The translations under genes were made by a program, and so were the position numbers. The notes below the pieces were generated by a model. That model was not told the DNA's origin and did not search any database. It saw only the letters and a list, made by a program, of their open reading frames with translations. 64,000 nucleotides of DNA from contig CAYFMP010000010.1 of assembly GCA_964344215.1 (NCBI GenBank), positions 7,446 through 71,445 of the forward strand, written 5' to 3'. This DNA is from an uncultured Thalassospiraceae bacterium. GTDB taxonomy: Bacteria > Pseudomonadota > Alphaproteobacteria > Rhodospirillales > Casp-alpha2. This document shows, one piece after another, positions 8,565-28,018 of the stretch; positions within the stretch are counted from its first letter, which is position 1, and each line of letters opens with the position of its first letter.

Positions 8565-8966
8565 ATGTTCGAACTGCACGAGCGCCTTGAGTCCGATACC
8601 GAGTTGCTGGCCGAGTGGTCGCTGTCGAGCGTTTTGCTGATGCGCGACGCCGCCTATCCGTGGCTGATCCTGGTGCCGGCGCGCCCGCGGCTCCGCCATC
8701 TGCACGACCTCTCGGCGGCCGATCGCCAAACGGCGATGAACGAGATCGCCCGCGCCTCAGAAGCCCTGCAAACCCTCTACCGGCCCGACAAGATCAACGT
8801 GGCGGCGCTCGGCAACGTCGTCGATCAGTTGCACATCCACGTCATTGCCCGATTTCGCTCCGACCCGGCCTGGCCGGGGCCGGTGTGGGGCGCGCAACCG
8901 CCGACGGCCTATGGCGCGGCCGAGTTGGCCGAAACCGTCGCGAGGTTGCGCGAAGTTCTTGACTAG
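8565..8966 (+). CDS. HIT-family (histidine triad) protein
   Basis: 133 aa from the ATG at 8565 (GGAG 9 nt upstream). Histidine triad QLHIHVIAR. Confidence 0.8.
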   Translation: MFELHERLESDTELLAEWSLSSVLLMRDAAYPWLILVPARPRLRHLHDLSAADRQTAMNEIARASEALQTLYRPDKINVAALGNVVDQLHIHVIARFRSDPAWPGPVWGAQPPTAYGAAELAETVARLREVLD

Positions 8967-10651
8967 GCTTCGCTGGAGCTCTTCCTCGCCGCATCGCGTA
9001 TGCCCGACAGGGTGGCGGTCGGCGTAATGGCGTCCGGGTCGAGGGTCAGTTCGATGATGGCGGGGGTGCCGGCCTCGGCGGCACGTTCGAAGGCGGCGGC
9101 GAAGTCCTCGGTGCGCTCGACCTTCTCGCCATGCGCCCCGTAGGCCCGGGCCAGGGCGGCGAAGTCCGGGTTGACGAGGTCGGTGCCCGAGACCCGGTCG
9201 GGATAGCGGCGTTCCTGGTGCATGCGGATGGTCCCGTACATGCTGTTGTTGACGACGATGATGACGATGTTGATGCCGTACTGGACGGCGGTGGCCAATT
9301 CCTGGCCGGTCATCAAGAAACAGCCGTCGCCGGCGAACGCCACCACCGGGCGCTCCGGATAGAGCCGTTTGGCGGCGATCGCCGCCGGCACCCCGTATCC
9401 CATGGAACCGCTGGTCGGCCCCAACTGGGTGCCGAACCCGCGATAGCGGTAGAACCGGTGAACCCAGGTCGAATAGTTACCGGCGCCGTTGGAGACGATG
9501 GTCTCCGGCGGCAGGCTGTCGCTGAGCCATTTGACGATGTCGCCCAATTGCAGATCGCCGGGGATGGCGGTCGGCGCGTTCCAGGCCAGGTAGTCGTCGC
9601 GGGCCTGTCGGGTCCAGTCGCCCCACGGCGATGCCCCGGCCGGCTCAAGCGCGGCGGCGGCGGCGGCGAACGGTGCCATGCCGGCATTGATGGCCAGCGC
9701 CGGCTGATAGACGCGGCCCAACTCGTCGGCCCCGGGATGGACATGGACCAGGGTCTGTTTCGGGGTCGGGATGCCGAGCAGGGTGTAGCCGCTGGTCGTC
9801 ATCTCGCCCAAGCGCGGACCGACGGCGATTAGCAGGTCGCTCTCGTCGAGCCGGGCTGCCAGTTTCGGGTTGACGCCGATGGCGACGTCGCCGGCGTAGT
9901 TGGCGTGTTCGTTGTCGAACAGGTCCTGACAGCGGAACGAGCAGGTTACCGGCAGGTCGAAGGCTTCGGCGAACTTCCGGATGTCGGCGCAGGCTTCCGC
10001 ACTCCAGCCGCCGCCACCGAGCATGACCAACGGCCGATTGGCGTCGCCGAGAAAGCCGGCCAGACGTTGCATGTCGGCCGCCGCCGGATGGGCCTGGATG
10101 CGCGCCGCCGCGGCGATGTCGCCGGCCGGCGCCCGCTCTTGGAGCATGTCCTCGGGCAGGGCGAGAACGACCGGACCGGGCCGTCCCGAAGTGGCCAGGT
10201 GGAAGGCGTGGCTCAGGTATTCGGGAACGCGCGCCGAATCGTCGATTTGCGCTGTCCACTTGCTCATCTCGCCAAACATGCGGCGATAGTCGATTTCCTG
10301 GAAAGCCTCGCGGTCGACCATGGAACGCGCGATCTGGCCGATGAACAGGATCATCGGGATCGAATCCTGAAAGGCAACGTGCACGCCGCCGGATGCGTTG
10401 GTCGCACCGGGCGCGCGGGTCACGAAACAGATGCCGGGCCCGCCCGTCAGTTTGCCGTGGGCGGCGGCCATCATCGCCGCCCCGCCCTCCTGGCGGCAGG
10501 CCATGAGGTCGATTTCGGGCGCATCGACCAGCGCGTCCAACACCGAAAGGTAGCTTTCGCCAGGCACGCAGAAAGCCCGCCCGACGCCGTTGGTGCGTAA
10601 GGCGTCGACCAGCAACTGCGCGCCCGTCCGTTTGTTGTCCTTCGGTGCCAT
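8963..10651 (-). CDS. Thiamine-pyrophosphate-binding enzyme (acetolactate-synthase-like family)
   Basis: 562 aa with a three-domain TPP-enzyme pattern. TPP-binding motif AFAGDGCFLMTGQELATAVQYGINIVIIVVNNSMYG. Confidence 0.88.
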   Translation of the reverse strand: MAPKDNKRTGAQLLVDALRTNGVGRAFCVPGESYLSVLDALVDAPEIDLMACRQEGGAAMMAAAHGKLTGGPGICFVTRAPGATNASGGVHVAFQDSIPMILFIGQIARSMVDREAFQEIDYRRMFGEMSKWTAQIDDSARVPEYLSHAFHLATSGRPGPVVLALPEDMLQERAPAGDIAAAARIQAHPAAADMQRLAGFLGDANRPLVMLGGGGWSAEACADIRKFAEAFDLPVTCSFRCQDLFDNEHANYAGDVAIGVNPKLAARLDESDLLIAVGPRLGEMTTSGYTLLGIPTPKQTLVHVHPGADELGRVYQPALAINAGMAPFAAAAAALEPAGASPWGDWTRQARDDYLAWNAPTAIPGDLQLGDIVKWLSDSLPPETIVSNGAGNYSTWVHRFYRYRGFGTQLGPTSGSMGYGVPAAIAAKRLYPERPVVAFAGDGCFLMTGQELATAVQYGINIVIIVVNNSMYGTIRMHQERRYPDRVSGTDLVNPDFAALARAYGAHGEKVERTEDFAAAFERAAEAGTPAIIELTLDPDAITPTATLSGIRDAARKSSSEA

Positions 10652-10749
10652 CGGCGGTCCTCCCGTCCGCGCCGCCGGCGGCGACGTCTCCAGCCTATAC
10701 TAGGTCGCGGGCCGGTCTATCGCCACAGCGATAATTCCTTTTTGGGGGG

Positions 10750-10792
10750 TGTGATCCAGATCACTGCCAGGCCAGCGCGGGTTCCCTATAGT
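10750..10792 (+). promoter_or_regulatory. CRP/FNR-type box plus -10 element
   Basis: TGTGA-tccaga-TCACt at 10750-10765, whose inner GTGATCcaGATCAC is a perfect palindrome. TATAGT at 10787-10792. The box centre lies about 41.5 nt upstream of the expected start site. Confidence 0.4.
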
Positions 10793-10798
10793 CATCGT

Positions 10799-10848
10799 CG
10801 ATATTCACGATCTCTCTCCTTCGCCGGGCCCAACGCCCGGCGTTTTTT
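10799..10848 (+). ncRNA. Candidate ~50-nt sRNA, or terminated leader of the downstream small ORF
   Basis: Predicted start about 10799. CU-rich anti-SD-like tract (10811-10821), then the intrinsic terminator. The start site is inferred, not observed. Confidence 0.3.
10822..10848 (+). terminator. Rho-independent terminator
   Basis: 8-bp GC stem CGCCGGGC/GCCCGGCG, 5-nt loop ccaac, followed by TTTTTT. Confidence 0.65.
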
Positions 10849-10925: not shown

Positions 10926-11138
10926 ATGGTGGAAGGTGGAACAGCGGCCGGCCCGGTTGTTTCCGCGCCGCCGCCCGAACCGAACGGGCAGTTCGCGCCG
11001 AGCGTTTTCGACGCCGACCGGATCGAGCAGAAGGTCAAGGCCTCCTTGGTCAGGAAAGTTCGCAAACTGGTCGAGGACTATCCGGAGCGGACGTTGGAGA
11101 TTATCCGCGGCTGGATGGCCGAGGGCCGCGTGCATTAG
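10926..11138 (+). CDS. Small hypothetical protein (70 aa)
   Basis: ATG at 10926 with GAGG about 10 nt upstream. The protein-like C-terminus (KVKASLVRKVRKLVEDYPERTLEIIRGWMAEG) loosely recalls the FliF C-terminal tail. No firm family. Confidence 0.4.
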   Translation: MVEGGTAAGPVVSAPPPEPNGQFAPSVFDADRIEQKVKASLVRKVRKLVEDYPERTLEIIRGWMAEGRVH

Positions 11139-19127: not shown

Positions 19128-19799
19128 ATGGACTCTCTGTTGATTTTCGACTTCGACGGAGTCGTCGCCGACAGCGAAGCGTTGGCCAACACCGTGCTGG
19201 CCGAGGTGGTCTCGGAACTCGGCATGCCGACGACGCTGGAGGATGCCTACGACCGCTATATGGGAAAACGGTTTGCCGAGGTGATTTCTGAAATCGAGGT
19301 TGTCACCGGCAGAACGCTGCCCGCGACTTTCGCCGACGATTTCCAGGCTAGGATGCTGGACAGATTTCGAAGCGATCTGAAGACGGTAGAAGGCGCCGAG
19401 ATCTATATCGAAACTTTCTCGCATGTTCCGAAATGCATCGCTTCCTCCTCTTCACCGGATCGTCTCGCCGTCAGCCTCGATGTCCTCGGGTTGAGCGAGA
19501 CATTCGGGCCGCACGTTTACAGCGCCTCGTTGGTGCCTCGCGGCAAACCCCATCCCGATATTTTCCTCCACGCGGCGGCGCAGGTCGGGGTCGAGCCGGC
19601 CCGCGCGGTGGTCATCGAAGACAGTGTCTTGGGAGTCGAGGCCGGGATTGCCGCCGGCATGACCGTGATCGGAGTTCTGGCCGCGTCGCATATTCGGGAC
19701 GGGCATGGCGAACGCCTTTCCGCCTCCGGCGCGCACCATGTTGCAGAGAACTTCGAGGAGGTGACGAGGCTTACCCACGGCATCCTGGCCGAATTCTGA
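19128..19799 (+). CDS. HAD-superfamily hydrolase (subfamily IA, phosphatase/beta-PGM-like)
   Basis: 223 aa. Motif I LIFDFDGVVADSE, motif II SSSS, motif III/IV K...EDSVLGVEAGIAAGM. Confidence 0.85.
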   Translation: MDSLLIFDFDGVVADSEALANTVLAEVVSELGMPTTLEDAYDRYMGKRFAEVISEIEVVTGRTLPATFADDFQARMLDRFRSDLKTVEGAEIYIETFSHVPKCIASSSSPDRLAVSLDVLGLSETFGPHVYSASLVPRGKPHPDIFLHAAAQVGVEPARAVVIEDSVLGVEAGIAAGMTVIGVLAASHIRDGHGERLSASGAHHVAENFEEVTRLTHGILAEF

Positions 19800-21678: not shown

Positions 21679-23234
21679 GGCCGCATCCGCTCGCGCGGCA
21701 GCTTGATGTCGAAACGCTCGCGGATCTCGGCGTCGAGCTCGGGAGCGATGTGTTCCGGATAGTGGGTGGAGAGGATCTCGGCTACCCGGTCGCGCGCCTT
21801 CTGGACGACGTCGGTCGAGCCGATCTCGACCCATTCCTTCGGACTGGTGCGATCGCCGACCGTTGGGTACTCGAAATCCGACTGCATGCGCTGCATGGTC
21901 TGATCGTGGCTCAGAAAATGGCCGGGGCCGTCGAGGCAGACCTGGCGGATGGTTTCGACCGACAGGCTGTCGTCGGTGACCTCGATGCCGCGCACCGAGC
22001 GCAGCACGCCGCCGAGCATGTCGTTGTCGATGACCAGGCTTTCCGGACAAAAACCCAACAGGCTGGCGTGCATGCCGGCCGATTCGTAGATCAGGTTGGC
22101 GCCGGAATTGCCGACCAGGGAAGCGGTATAGCCCTTCTCGTAGCCCGATTGCGCGTCGGGAACCTTGGAGTCCGTCATGCCGGCGGCGACGCTGCCGGTC
22201 AGGTCGTAGAAGTTCAGCATCTGGGCGCAGGCCGAACTGAGCAAGGATTGCTCGCCGCTGCCGGCGCTCAGCATGCCGGTGCGCAGATCGGAGACGAAAG
22301 GCCAGGCGCCCATCATGCAAGGATGGCCGGGCGACAGCAGGTTGACGTAAACGACGGCGGCCAGCACCTCGGCCACGCACTGAACGACGGCGCCGGCCAG
22401 CGGCGCCGGCGCCGTCGCCCCGGCCTGTCCGGCCGACAGCAGCAGTACCGGCATGCCGCCGCGCACGGCCGCCTCCATGCATTCGCAGGTTTCCTCGGCG
22501 AACTTCAGCGGCGGCACCACGTAACAACTCGACATGCTGACGAACGGACGCGCCCGCCACTCCGCCTCGCCGCCGGCCACCATGTGCAGCATGGCCAGGG
22601 TCTCGTCGACGTGATCGGGGCTGACCCACGAGGTGCCGATGTGTTTCTGGGTGGCGGCGATCGCCGCGTAGCAGGTGTTGATGTCGAGGTCGCGGTTGTC
22701 GGTCATGTCGCGGGCGACGACCGAGCGCTGGAAGAAGTGGATGTTGTCCATGCAATCGACGATGCGACCGACATCGTAGAGGTCGGCCAGGGTCGATTCC
22801 CGGTACTCGCCGCTGAGCGCGTCGACCATATGGACGGCGGCGCCGCCGGTGCCGAAATAGACCCGTTTGCCCGAAGGCTCCATGTCGTGGGCCGGGTCGC
22901 GGCCGTGCAGGGTGAAGTTGCGCCCCGCCACGGCCAGCATGTCCTCGACCAGGCCGCGCGGGAACAGCAGGCGCCCGTCCTCGGTCAGGCTGCCGCCGGC
23001 GCCGGTGACCAGTTCGATGCAGCTCGGGATGGCGCGGTCGAAGCCGACCTGTTCGAGGACATCGAGGGCGGCGTGATGGATGCGCTGGACTTCGGCGTCG
23101 GTCAGCGGCTTATAGAGGCCGCCTTCGAGGCCCGGACGGACGGCGCGCAACTCGGCCGTCGGCGGAGCCGCTCTCAACTCGTGGCGGGCGCTGCGTCCAC
23201 CGCGCCGCTTGGTTGTCGCTTGATCCGGGGCCAT
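21675..23234 (-). CDS. MttB-superfamily (trimethylamine methyltransferase-like, non-Pyl) protein
   Basis: 519 aa from the ATG at 23232-23234 (GGAG 6 nt upstream). LTDAEVQRIHHAALDVLEQVGF near the N-terminus, and a length typical of MttB family members. Confidence 0.8.
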   Translation of the reverse strand: MAPDQATTKRRGGRSARHELRAAPPTAELRAVRPGLEGGLYKPLTDAEVQRIHHAALDVLEQVGFDRAIPSCIELVTGAGGSLTEDGRLLFPRGLVEDMLAVAGRNFTLHGRDPAHDMEPSGKRVYFGTGGAAVHMVDALSGEYRESTLADLYDVGRIVDCMDNIHFFQRSVVARDMTDNRDLDINTCYAAIAATQKHIGTSWVSPDHVDETLAMLHMVAGGEAEWRARPFVSMSSCYVVPPLKFAEETCECMEAAVRGGMPVLLLSAGQAGATAPAPLAGAVVQCVAEVLAAVVYVNLLSPGHPCMMGAWPFVSDLRTGMLSAGSGEQSLLSSACAQMLNFYDLTGSVAAGMTDSKVPDAQSGYEKGYTASLVGNSGANLIYESAGMHASLLGFCPESLVIDNDMLGGVLRSVRGIEVTDDSLSVETIRQVCLDGPGHFLSHDQTMQRMQSDFEYPTVGDRTSPKEWVEIGSTDVVQKARDRVAEILSTHYPEHIAPELDAEIRERFDIKLPRERMRP

Positions 23235-25349: not shown

Positions 25350-26069
25350 TCAGCGGATCTTGGCGAGAAGCTGCTTGGCCTGCTGCACGCATCCGAATTT
25401 CGCCATCCATACCACCCTGTAAGCGTCGGACTGCAGATTGCCGGGAGCCACGAAGATCGTCAGGCGGCTGGCCGTGACCGAGCCTTTGAGCCGGGCCATG
25501 AACTTGGCGCCGTCCTCGAGAGTGACTTTCTCCGGCCAATCGACGGTGGCGGCGCCGGCCGGCCAGGACACCGACGATTTGCTGCGGTCGGTGAGGTTGC
25601 GCAGCGACAGCTTGGTCTTCCTACCGGCCTTCGAGCGCCACAGCTTGACCGGTCTGCCGGCGTTCACGCAGTGATTGCCGGAGCGGGTGATATCGACCAC
25701 CCACGGGTCGTCCGGAGCTTCCGGCGGCTTGGCGGCGCGCATGGTGCCGAGCTCCCCGGTTTCCTTGCCCGCCCCGGTCAGCAAACCGGAAAGAGACGCC
25801 ACCAGGTTGCCGCCGTCGGCGCCGCCGCCGCCGGCCTCGACCGGGCCCGACCGTGGTCCGGCGAGAGTCATCGGCGTGCCGGCTTCGGTAATCAGCGTCA
25901 CTTCGGCGCCGGCCGGCACATCGAGCGCGGCACCGGATTTGAATACCTGGCCGGCTTTGATGTCGGGCGCCGTACTGGCGATGACGACCATGTCGCCGGC
26001 CAGCGCCGCGCCGGCGAAGCCAATGAAGACGATGAAGAGGAGAAAGACCAATCCGCGGGATACCATCAC
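25350..26069 (-). CDS. Secreted FecR-like / unknown two-domain protein coupled to the CHASE2 cyclase
   Basis: 239 aa with a signal peptide (LVFLLFIVFIGFAGAALA). The start (GTG 26069 or ATG 26066) overlaps the cyclase stop. The N-terminal beta-rich segment resembles FecR-type domains, a weak call. Confidence 0.6.
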   Translation of the reverse strand: MMVSRGLVFLLFIVFIGFAGAALAGDMVVIASTAPDIKAGQVFKSGAALDVPAGAEVTLITEAGTPMTLAGPRSGPVEAGGGGADGGNLVASLSGLLTGAGKETGELGTMRAAKPPEAPDDPWVVDITRSGNHCVNAGRPVKLWRSKAGRKTKLSLRNLTDRSKSSVSWPAGAATVDWPEKVTLEDGAKFMARLKGSVTASRLTIFVAPGNLQSDAYRVVWMAKFGCVQQAKQLLAKIR

Positions 26070-28018
26070 TTCTCTCCCATGACGATACGAGTACCGGATT
26101 CGCCGCTTTCCAGCCTTTTCAGGTGAAAGGCGGCCAACCCATCCTCTGGATTCAATTCTAAAACATTCCGAAAAGCCGTAACAGCCTCGGGGTTATCCTC
26201 CTCCATATACCGGAAAGCCTCGGCATAGGCTGTGACGGCGCGCATAGTCTTGCTGTCATCGGAAACCGGTTCGAATACCTCGATCGCTTCCTCCTTGCCC
26301 TTCAGCACGAGGGCGCCGACTTGCCGGAATTCGAGGTCGGGACATTGGCGGGCGGTGGTTTCGCTGATGCAGACCCGGGTGCCGAGGTGCTTGTTGACGC
26401 TTTCCAGGCGGGCCGCCGTGTTGACGGTGTCGCCGAGGCCGGTGTAGTCGAAGAACTGCTCGCTGCCGAAGTTGCCGACGGTGGCGATCCCGGTATGGAC
26501 GCCGATACGGGTGATGCCGACTTCGACGCCGCGCGCCGCCTGGTCCTCGACGAAACGCTGGCCGAAGGCGTCCATCTCGAGGGCGCAGGCGACGGCGCGG
26601 GCCCGGTGGTCGGGCTGCTCGACCGGCGCATTGAAAAAGGCGACAACGGCATCGCCGATCAGCTTGTCCAGAGTCGCATCGTGCTTGAGCGCGATGTCCA
26701 GCATTCCGCCCATGTACTCCCACAGCAATTTGACCAGCGCTTCCGGCTCGGTGCGCTCGGTCAACGACGTGAAGCTAGCCATGTCGGTGAACAGGAAGGT
26801 CAGTTCGCGGCGGTCGCCGCCGACCTTGAGCTGGTCGGGGTCGGCGATCAATTGGTCGACGACGGAGCGCGACACGAAGTGCGAAAAGGCCTCGCGGATG
26901 TAGCGTTTCTGCTCGCGGTCGCGGCGCCCGAGATAAGCGACGCCGCCGCCGCTGCCGATCAGAAAGGCGATCGAGGGAGGCAGCAGCGGTAGCATCAGGC
27001 CGGTTTGGCCATAGGCGGCGAAGCCGCCGATCCAGACGGCGGCGACGATGACGGCGACCAGTAGGCCCTTGACGGCGGTGACGGCGTCGAGCGCCGCCAC
27101 CGCCAACCCGAGAACGGCGACCGCCAGGACCAGCGCCGCCGTGCCGCCGGTGCCGAGCGCCGGCTTGTTGCGGCCGTCGAGCAGTTGGGCCAGGGCGTGG
27201 GCATGGACGACGACGCCGGGCAGCGAGCCGGCACGGGCGCCGCGGGCGGCGGCGAACGGGGTGCGGTGGCGGTCGATCATCGGCAGGTCTGCACCGATCA
27301 GGAAGACCTTGCCGGCCAGCCACGGCTTCGGCAGGAACGCCGCGGTATGGGCCGGGAACCTCTTGAAGGCGGGAGTTTTGGAGTCGGGCGGCGGCCGGTA
27401 GGCGAGGTCGAGGTCGTCTTTCGGCGTCGAGCGACCGAGAAGGTCGGCGATGACGCTCATGAAGCCGGGCCGCCACTTGCCGTCGATGGTCTCGCCGGCA
27501 TAGATCCAGCGCACGGTGCCGTCGGCGCCGTCCTTGGCCAGGTTGGCCGGGCCGCTGCGGATGCCGGAGGTGAAGGCGCCGAGATAGGCTGCTTGCTTCT
27601 TGGTCAGTCCGAACCCCTTGCCGGCCGAAGCGACCACGACCGGCGTCGACAACTCAAGCAGGGTTTTGCGGAGCAGGTTGTCCTTGGCCGGCTCGGTCGG
27701 CTGGTCGAACAGGATGTCGATACCGATGGCGGCCGGCCTGGCTTCGTCGAGTTTCCTCAAGAGCGCCGCCAGGAAACCGCGGTCGACCGGCGAGCGGTAG
27801 GGAAGCGCCGCCAGGGTGTCCTCGGTGATGGTGAGGACGACGACGTCCGCGTTCTGCGGTTCGGGCGAGGCCAGGGCGCCGAACCGGAAATCGGCCAGCC
27901 AGTTCTCCGTCACCTGGACGATCGGCAGCAGGCGTGGCAGGCCGAGGCCGACGCTGGCCGAAAGAACGGCGATCAGCAGAACCGGAACGATGTCTCGAGG
28001 GGAAATCGAATGGAACAT
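26066..28018 (-). CDS. CHASE2-sensor class III adenylate/guanylate cyclase with a C-terminal TPR-like tail
   Basis: 650 aa. N-terminal TM + CHASE2 (VVVLTITEDTLAALPYRSPVDRGFLA), three TMs, cyclase core (LTFLFTDMASFTSL...KLIGDAV...FGSEQFFDYTGLGDTVNTAARLES). Confidence 0.9.
   Translation of the reverse strand: MFHSISPRDIVPVLLIAVLSASVGLGLPRLLPIVQVTENWLADFRFGALASPEPQNADVVVLTITEDTLAALPYRSPVDRGFLAALLRKLDEARPAAIGIDILFDQPTEPAKDNLLRKTLLELSTPVVVASAGKGFGLTKKQAAYLGAFTSGIRSGPANLAKDGADGTVRWIYAGETIDGKWRPGFMSVIADLLGRSTPKDDLDLAYRPPPDSKTPAFKRFPAHTAAFLPKPWLAGKVFLIGADLPMIDRHRTPFAAARGARAGSLPGVVVHAHALAQLLDGRNKPALGTGGTAALVLAVAVLGLAVAALDAVTAVKGLLVAVIVAAVWIGGFAAYGQTGLMLPLLPPSIAFLIGSGGGVAYLGRRDREQKRYIREAFSHFVSRSVVDQLIADPDQLKVGGDRRELTFLFTDMASFTSLTERTEPEALVKLLWEYMGGMLDIALKHDATLDKLIGDAVVAFFNAPVEQPDHRARAVACALEMDAFGQRFVEDQAARGVEVGITRIGVHTGIATVGNFGSEQFFDYTGLGDTVNTAARLESVNKHLGTRVCISETTARQCPDLEFRQVGALVLKGKEEAIEVFEPVSDDSKTMRAVTAYAEAFRYMEEDNPEAVTAFRNVLELNPEDGLAAFHLKRLESGESGTRIVMGEK

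Follow-up and report, generated by a model that had tools for sequence, protein, structure and literature searches.

We describe here a candidate gene for a trans-acting small RNA (sRNA) in a 64,000-nucleotide (nt) stretch of DNA from an uncultured Thalassospiraceae bacterium (contig CAYFMP010000010.1; the whole stretch is referred to as the window, and its first letter is position 1). Between positions 10750 and 10848, the plus strand probably holds an independent gene for an RNA of about 49 nt, which would be transcribed from a class II CRP-type promoter, pair with the initiation region of a Porin_4 mRNA encoded elsewhere in the genome, and repress its translation. The parts of this unit are as follows:

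10750-10765, plus strand: CRP-type box TGTGATCCAGATCACT, centred at 10757.5, read from the window sequence
10787-10792, plus strand: -10 hexamer TATAGT, 22 nt past the TCAC of the box, read from the sequence
10800-10848, plus strand: predicted sRNA of about 49 nt, with its putative start at the purine 7-8 nt past the -10 hexamer and its end in the U-run
10800-10808, plus strand: 5' seed block GAUAUUCAC, complementary to GUGAAUAUC
10811-10821, plus strand: CU-rich tract, read from the sequence
10813-10825, plus strand: CU-rich block UCUCUCCUUC(GCC), the complement of the porin Shine-Dalgarno region (GGU)GAAGGAGAGA
10822-10848, plus strand: Rho-independent terminator with an 8-bp GC stem, a 5-nt loop and U6

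The promoter has the arrangement of a class II CRP-dependent promoter, with a TGTGA-N6-TCACA-like site near -41.5 that overlaps the -35 region. The box centre lies 29.5 bp from the first base of the -10 hexamer, and with the hexamer taken as -12 to -7 this places the box at -41.5; we infer a start at 10799, which gives exactly this value, or at 10800, which gives -42.5. On the minus strand, the hexamers found 21-23 nt from the box are CTGTGG, GCTGTG and TGTGGC, none of which is of the TAnnnT type, so the class II geometry fits one strand only. The half-sites are those of CRP (GTGA/TCAC) and not those of FNR (TTGA/TCAA), and the class II spacing is found in every copy that we inspected. An earlier sequence-only reading of the window had listed the same elements, proposed the class II geometry near -41.5, and remarked that it could not be built on the minus strand; each of the elements was found at the position it gave, the geometry holds and the spacing from box to -10 is kept in homologues as well, and the minus-strand remark is borne out by the lack of a -10-like hexamer at the equivalent distance. 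Its label of a “CRP/FNR-type” box stood for the CRP part and fell for the FNR part. Just upstream of the box lies an inverted repeat, TATCGCCACAGCGATA, followed by a T-rich run (10718-10740, plus strand), which looked terminator-like in a terminator scan; the regions upstream of the homologous promoters are likewise A/T-rich, and an UP element is possible there.

Folding of the RNA (10800-10848) gives 22 free nt followed by the terminator hairpin, at -17.6 kcal/mol and z = -3.6. The hairpin, CGCCGGGC-ccaac-GCCCGGCG, occupies 10822-10842 and the T6 occupies 10843-10848, with the last four nt of the CU-rich block (10813-10825) sitting in the base of the stem. Across 49 aligned copies of the terminator, 94.2% of the cells are paired and five of the eight pairs have changed on both sides; none of 500 shuffles reaches the observed values, and controls in which the pairing was slid along the alignment are 33-44% paired. 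This covariation argues for an RNA, not merely a DNA element. With a promoter of its own, a seed free of structure and a Rho-independent terminator that ends in a U-tail, the unit has the parts expected in sequence of an Hfq-type sRNA, and the terminator resembles an Hfq-binding 3' end. The genome has an hfq gene (found by tblastn at C30:17698-17898, 54% identical to E. coli Hfq over 67 aa), and the RNA, whose shape of 22 unpaired nt, GC hairpin and U-tail would fit such an interaction, is probably Hfq-dependent. Rfam 15, scanned with the whole window and then with the region at E <= 10, gave no RNA family at the gathering score for the region, CyaR, MicF, SorX and mmgR included. The best sub-threshold match there was SorX (RF02784; 26.5 bits, gathering score 46.6), an identity that we rejected because the alignment rests almost wholly on the terminator.

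The unit is conserved as a whole. Our sample consisted of 96 genomes in 18 genera of the window's GTDB family (the genera are labelled g1-g18), and the unit recurs in at least 51 of these genomes, from 13 genera, as well as in a single genome from a neighbouring family. Its blocks are GTGA-N6-TCAC, a TAnnnT hexamer 22 nt further on, GAUAUUCAC, a CU-rich block, a GC hairpin and a U-run, and the sequence between them drifts. When the whole intergenic region was compared by BLAST with 60 related genomes, only the stretch from the -10 to the terminator was matched, in three other genera, and in these three the box and the -10 are present upstream with unchanged spacing. A first covariance model, built from four sequences, matched 63 of the family genomes and 14 of the genera at E <= 0.01, with full-length matches at E < 1e-3 in 51 genomes; all 47 loci that were inspected by eye have the same arrangement, in which the 22 nt between box and -10 vary, 6-7 nt separate the -10 from GAUAUUCAC, and a linker, short and variable, leads on to CUCUCCUUC, the hairpin and the U-run. 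The perfect GTGA-N6-TCAC is found in 45 of these 47 homologous promoters, while the six inner bases and the 22-nt spacer vary, and at equal distance follows a -10 reading TATGGT, TATGTT, GATAnT or TATAAA. Of the 44 loci that could be parsed by pattern, 34 have 34-35 nt between TCAC and the conserved 5' block, and the loci outside this range are mostly parsing artefacts or the form found in g10, which is 3 nt longer. A rebuilt model, run over 301 genomes of the order, returned only the window's family and one genome of the family f2, where the box, the 22 nt and the -10 are also present. The box, -10 and hairpin, which the sequence-only reading had singled out as the elements to look for in relatives, are thus all conserved, as a unit, in 13 genera.

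Some matches were set aside. A second covariance-model match in the window's own genome (C26) is only the terminator at the end of a gene, and the loci L142-L144 (E > 2e-3) are false positives for the porin-sRNA family. A pattern scan of the whole collection gave about 13 matches outside Alphaproteobacteria, which is near the estimated chance number. Five metagenome-assembled genomes (MAGs) of Gemmatimonadota (L047, L049, L052, L058 and L059) match the pattern GATATTCAC-N(3-9)-CTCCTTCNCCGG, and these five exceed the chance expectation for one phylum.

The free part of the RNA points to its target. Its reverse complement, GAAGGAGAGA-N-GUGAAUAUC, resembles a Shine-Dalgarno sequence, a spacer and a GUG start, and the initiation region of a porin gene reads GAAGGAGAGA-ccaaa-GUGAAUAUC, where GUGAAUAUC is the start codon together with codons 2-3:

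C9:41422-42543, on another contig: target porin gene, with the 5' end ggtGAAGGAGAGAccaaaGUGAAUAUCaaa

The protein encoded there has a signal peptide, a C-terminal Phe and a PF13609 Porin_4 match at 2.4e-24. Our duplex scan of the window's own genome returned 5245 windows at -17 kcal/mol or better, and its top three non-self duplexes are a MaoC-like gene (-34.8 kcal/mol), a site beside another box (-30.5 kcal/mol) and the porin (-30.0 kcal/mol); the porin is the sole site in the scan that matches both conserved blocks. The CU tract, which had been noted at first as complementary to Shine-Dalgarno sequences in general, is indeed so, to that of one specific porin mRNA.

Complementarity to this mRNA, encoded elsewhere in the genome, is conserved and accompanied by compensatory changes, as is characteristic of a trans-acting sRNA. 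Porin orthologues in g1, g5, g11 and g18 keep GGUGAAGGAGA(G/A)ACCAAA-(G/A)UGAAUAUC almost unchanged, and the start position is supported as the true one because GUG alternates there with AUG. The RNA of g10, GAUGAGAUUCACUCUUAC, matches the 5' untranslated region (UTR) of its porin, GUAAGAGUGAAUCUCAUC, perfectly in 18 of 18 positions, and its seed change (GAGAUUCAC with GUGAAUCUC) pairs a U-to-G substitution on the RNA side with A-to-C in the target. Paired changes are also found in g6 (GAUAUCCAC with GUGGAUAUC, and CCUUACAC with GUGUAAGG), in the single genome G010 (GAUGUUCAA with GUGAACAUC), and between g1 and g11 (CUCUCC/GGAGAG against UUCUCC/GGAGAA); in g7, the linker is complementary to the target too. 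These natural compensatory variants (g1/g11, g6 and g10) are ready-made pairs of mutant and suppressor. A 24 × 24 matrix of duplexes gives -28 to -41 kcal/mol for the cognate pairs in 22 genomes, and -11 to -26 kcal/mol when a g10 RNA is combined with a porin from outside g10 or the reverse. In G071 and G014, moreover, the first covariance model picked up the antisense strand of the porin 5' end as well.

The RNA and the porin occur together. Counted by genome, 54 have both, 6 the RNA only, 18 the porin only and 18 neither (Fisher p = 2e-5, uncorrected for phylogeny); counted by genus, 12 have both, one the RNA only, one the porin only and four neither, and the genera without the RNA (g2, g4, g13 and g17) are also without the porin family. 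The sRNA and porin genes are on separate contigs; in G114, a complete genome, about 1.4 Mb separates them. A paralogous porin, at C12, differs in its initiation region and is not predicted to be a target. The porin 5' UTRs (L095-L124) also share a conserved palindrome, of the GGGGAUAUCCC(C) type, about 20-35 nt before the start codons and immediately 5' of the site where the sRNA pairs; a 5' stem-loop is possible there.

The mechanism that we propose begins with a cyclic-nucleotide-type CRP homologue, most likely the one at C25:20228-20923, which would activate transcription from the GTGA-N6-TCAC at -41.5. The sequence-only reading had thought a cNMP-responsive regulator plausible in view of a class III cyclase encoded in the window (26066-28018), a link that is conjecture. 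The RNA would then pair in two blocks, as shown by covariation, with the Porin_4 mRNA, UCUCUCCUUC lying over the Shine-Dalgarno sequence and GAUAUUCAC over the GUG and the next two codons. Since such pairing spans both the Shine-Dalgarno sequence and the start codon, the predicted effect is translational repression: the duplex would block ribosome binding and probably trigger decay of the mRNA, and the porin would, as a result of this blocking, be turned down when the activator is on. This proposed path from regulator to sRNA to target was obtained from sequence alone.

Three entries matter for the choice of the activator:

C25:20228-20923: CRP homologue of the C25 type, candidate activator
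C53:18556-19239 (L079): CRP-like gene with the helix SRESINK, in 4 of the 96 family genomes
C53:18465-18480: palindrome TGTGAACCAGTTCACA following the C53 gene, close to the site (TGTGAAGCAGTTCACA) at which CgrA of Rhodospirillum centenum was footprinted

The genome encodes six proteins of the CRP/FNR family, three with an FNR-like E--SR helix and three with a CRP-like RE helix. Aligned to E. coli CRP, the C25 protein keeps R180, E181 and R185 (RETVAR) as well as the phosphate-binding RS motif (PRSAS), and it has in this way both the DNA-contacting residues and the cyclic-nucleotide pocket of a CRP-type activator. Orthologues with 53-68% identity are present in 91 of the 96 genomes, and the recognition helix STTRETVARV is invariant in all 12 that were checked. 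The CRP-like paralogues C53 and C104 are missing from most of the genomes that carry the RNA. Downstream of the palindrome at C53 lie a -10 and an open reading frame (ORF) for a hydrophobic protein of 35 aa.

The RNA and its porin target could be real and the box still be bound by some other regulator, either a CRP/FNR paralogue or an unrelated binder of GTGA-N6-TCAC, in which case the signal may not be a cyclic nucleotide at all. We consider this unlikely, though worth keeping in mind. It draws on the number of candidates (six family members, three of them with the RE-type helix), on the C53 protein (helix RESINK), which adjoins a palindrome resembling the footprinted CgrA site, and on the C25-type gene itself, which lacks its own box and is only loosely linked to the RNA, at 23-280 kb. 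The C53 regulator, which we had suspected for its adjoining palindromic box, was nevertheless rejected for its rarity in the family, and the C104 regulator because it is absent from g11, a genus that carries the RNA; the three proteins with the E--SR helix are expected to prefer TTGA sites. Autoregulation of the C25-type gene was also considered, and was dropped because no box lies upstream of the gene in 11 genomes.

Several observations weigh against an sRNA that is driven by the C25-type protein and represses the porin. On the side of the activator, the C25-type assignment draws only on residue conservation and phyletic presence, the C25-type gene lacks an upstream box in the 11 genomes just mentioned, and co-occurrence does not discriminate, because the C25-type homologue is also found in genera without the RNA. 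On the side of the target, 18 genomes have a porin homologue and no detected RNA, and six have the RNA and no detected porin, most of these six assemblies being incomplete. The porin of g5 starts with AUG, with the loss of one pair, and the target has changed in G112 and G113 (GUGAACAUC) with no matching change in the RNA. In g10 the pairing site precedes the Shine-Dalgarno sequence, covering -32 to -15 and ending 14 nt before the AUG, so the mechanism may differ there. The best duplex in the window's own genome, moreover, is not that with the porin and instead that with the MaoC-like gene, with 19 contiguous pairs at -34.8 kcal/mol. Finally, every member of the family is an uncultured MAG, and the named records are all listed as uncultured “Rhodospirillales bacterium” or “Thalassospiraceae bacterium”.

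In a second alternative, the porin match would be a side effect of an RNA that acts mainly on other targets or on Shine-Dalgarno sequences in general. The CU-rich block can pair with many ribosome-binding sites of the GGAG type, the duplex scan returned the 5245 windows given above, the MaoC-like gene has the best duplex of all in this genome, and the same genome has other box-driven CU-rich RNAs. Only the porin site, however, matches both blocks and changes with the RNA across genera, and a search of 12 related genomes turned up no close orthologue of the MaoC-like gene, for which reasons we find this alternative quite improbable. The MaoC-like dehydratase gene itself (C19, start at 19385, minus strand) is one in which pairing with the sRNA spans the Shine-Dalgarno sequence and the GUG start. 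Its relatives in those 12 genomes are only 32-39% identical, too distant to judge conservation by, and it was set aside; it may be a second, lineage-specific target.

The sequence-only reading had left a choice between a small RNA and a terminated leader that would control a 70-aa ORF beginning 78 nt downstream of the terminator. The neighbours concerned, both outside the unit, are:

8963-10651, minus strand: divergent gene for a thiamine pyrophosphate (TPP)-dependent enzyme (Pfam TPP_enzyme_N/M/C)
10926-11138, plus strand: downstream 70-aa ORF, which has no Pfam match

The leader has in its favour that an ORF on the same strand follows the unit in g1, g7 and g18, where read-through of the terminator could feed it. 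These are, however, the only genera in which the RNA is flanked by the TPP-enzyme gene and the 70-aa ORF; the flanking genes are different in g5, g9 and g11, where the ORF is absent and the unit is equally conserved, and where the ORF does occur it is anywhere between 85 and about 480 nt away. Nor did the fold analysis find in the 22-nt free part a start codon for a leader peptide or an alternative structure, and neither these features nor a constant linkage to the downstream gene, as expected of an attenuator, is present. The conserved bases are accounted for instead by pairing to a gene elsewhere in the genome. One genome (G008, MAG OFTM364) has three sibling copies of the sRNA within 3 kb (L039:4017-6770), 1.3-1.5 kb apart, each with its own box and -10 and with a different linker between the two seed blocks. 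Taken together, the changing flanks, the sibling copies, and the lack of a start codon and of any competing fold in the free part make a leader or attenuator very improbable, and the sRNA half of the original choice is the one that is upheld, by a unit that is kept whole in 13 genera irrespective of the genes around it. The 70-aa ORF is itself conserved downstream of the sRNA in g1, g7 and g18, at 38-69% identity.

That the unit might be a conserved DNA element, namely an operator with a stray terminator and no functional RNA, has next to no probability: although the RNA is known here only through its sequence, the hairpin is maintained by compensatory changes, the sequence from promoter to hairpin is conserved as expected of an RNA that pairs with an mRNA, and there is no upstream plus-strand gene for the terminator to serve.

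The porin-directed sRNA is not alone under this box. TGTGA-N6-TCAC occurs at 23 sites in the window's genome, and at least 14 of these are intergenic against about 3.5 expected by chance, intergenic being called here with a deliberately over-calling gene finder that left 15% of the genome as such. Most of the sites have a TAnnnT 21-23 nt downstream. The genes that follow encode flagellin, FlaF, a PilZ protein, a GGDEF-EAL protein, two tandem CheY-like regulators and a protein of the metallo-beta-lactamase fold, together with a Flp-type pilin that was identified by eye; examples of box sites are C28:18576, C62:20534, C68:18976, C16:610, C22:49492, C43:16559, C43:17310 and C24:4577. The set looks like a regulon for motility, adhesion and cyclic di-GMP. 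Two further sRNA-like units are driven by such boxes:

C16:45849-46011 (L153:100-262), minus strand: second box-driven sRNA-like unit, with TGTGACGGGCGTCACT, TATGGT and a predicted transcript of about 105 nt
C30, about 2555-2683 (L154:105-235), minus strand: third box-driven sRNA-like unit, with TGTGATACCCGTCACA, TATAGA and about 85 nt that include CCUCCCUUCCCUC and a GC terminator

The C16 unit has three C/U-rich tracts and ends in ...CCCUCCCUGUUAAACUCGCCGGG-hairpin-U7. Its 3' part is conserved in 45 of the 96 family genomes and 13 of the 18 genera, including genera without the porin sRNA; it is driven by the box in g3, g11 and g17 and by a different promoter in g18. No Rfam family passes the threshold for this unit, which gave weak matches to SorX, SorY and mmgR. 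The C30 unit adjoins a tRNA gene.

A wider and more speculative picture, which we put forward as a possibility that is rather less likely than not to hold in full, makes the porin sRNA one arm of a cyclic-nucleotide/CRP “lifestyle” regulon comprising flagellin, FlaF, the Flp pilin, the PilZ and GGDEF-EAL proteins, the two CheY-like regulators and at least three CU-rich sRNAs. CRP would then control the cell surface at two levels, in transcription and by way of several sRNAs, and the sRNA and its porin would be a fast-evolving pair whose site has moved from the start codon to the 5' UTR in one genus. In these uncultured bacteria, outer-membrane permeability probably depends on the same cyclic-nucleotide signal as the genes of motility and adhesion.

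One other RNA match in the window lies away from the unit. The Rfam family PYLIS_3, the pyrrolysine insertion sequence of mttB, matches a gene of the MttB family at 22079-22178 (minus strand) with 59.2 bits against a gathering score of 38. The aligned UAG position is AUG here, so the match is probably one of coding-sequence similarity and not a pyrrolysine signal.

Our literature search found no described sRNA in Rhodospirillales that controls a porin or is driven by CRP. A close likeness is to CyaR, a CRP-dependent and Hfq-dependent sRNA that base-pairs at the Shine-Dalgarno region of the ompX mRNA, which is then translated less and is less stable (PMC11795201). CyaR (RyeE) of enterobacteria shares with the RNA described here a transcription that depends on CRP and a target in the Shine-Dalgarno sequence of an outer-membrane protein mRNA, both of which we infer for our case. 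The two have no homology in sequence or structure, CyaR not being among the Rfam matches even at E <= 10, and CyaR belongs to Gammaproteobacteria, the present RNA to Rhodospirillales. CyaR is about 87 nt long, whereas the present RNA, at about 49 nt, would use its very 5' end and its CU block in a two-part duplex.

MicF, MicC, MicA and RybB are trans-encoded sRNAs that use their 5' part to cover the Shine-Dalgarno sequence and start codon of a porin mRNA, and they end in a terminator hairpin with a U-tail; MicF, for example, represses ompF by pairing across the Shine-Dalgarno sequence and start codon. Unlike the unit described here, with its CRP-type box, sRNAs of the MicF type are regulated by OmpR, SoxS, MarA or sigma-E. 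None of them is matched here in Rfam, and the lineage at the level of the phylum and the porin family both differ. FnrS of E. coli resembles the unit in its promoter, being a short sRNA gene with a class II site for a CRP/FNR-family activator near -41.5, but its box is that of FNR (TTGAT-N4-ATCAA), it responds to oxygen, its targets are metabolic enzymes where ours is a porin, and there is no homology. SorX of Rhodobacter sphaeroides is, like the present RNA, an alphaproteobacterial sRNA in which a GC terminator follows a C/U-rich stretch; it is processed from a 3' UTR, whereas the RNA described here has a promoter of its own.

For the regulator, the nearest parallel is CgrA, the CRP homologue of R. 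centenum, which binds cyclic GMP and protects TGTGA-N6-TCACA in footprinting (PMC4681086). Its footprint means that boxes of the CRP type are in use within Rhodospirillales. The CgrA regulon concerns cyst development, and no sRNA is reported in it (PMC4681086), whereas the box sites found here lie before genes for motility, adhesion and cyclic di-GMP; the C53 protein, which adjoins the CgrA-like box in the present genome, is confined to the four genomes listed above. The predicted sRNA is, in sum, a new family without an Rfam entry that, as judged from its promoter and pairing, acts like the CRP-dependent and porin-silencing sRNAs of enterobacteria. Because this kind of mechanism is well known from those bacteria, the sRNA adds to an established theme; it does not start a new one.

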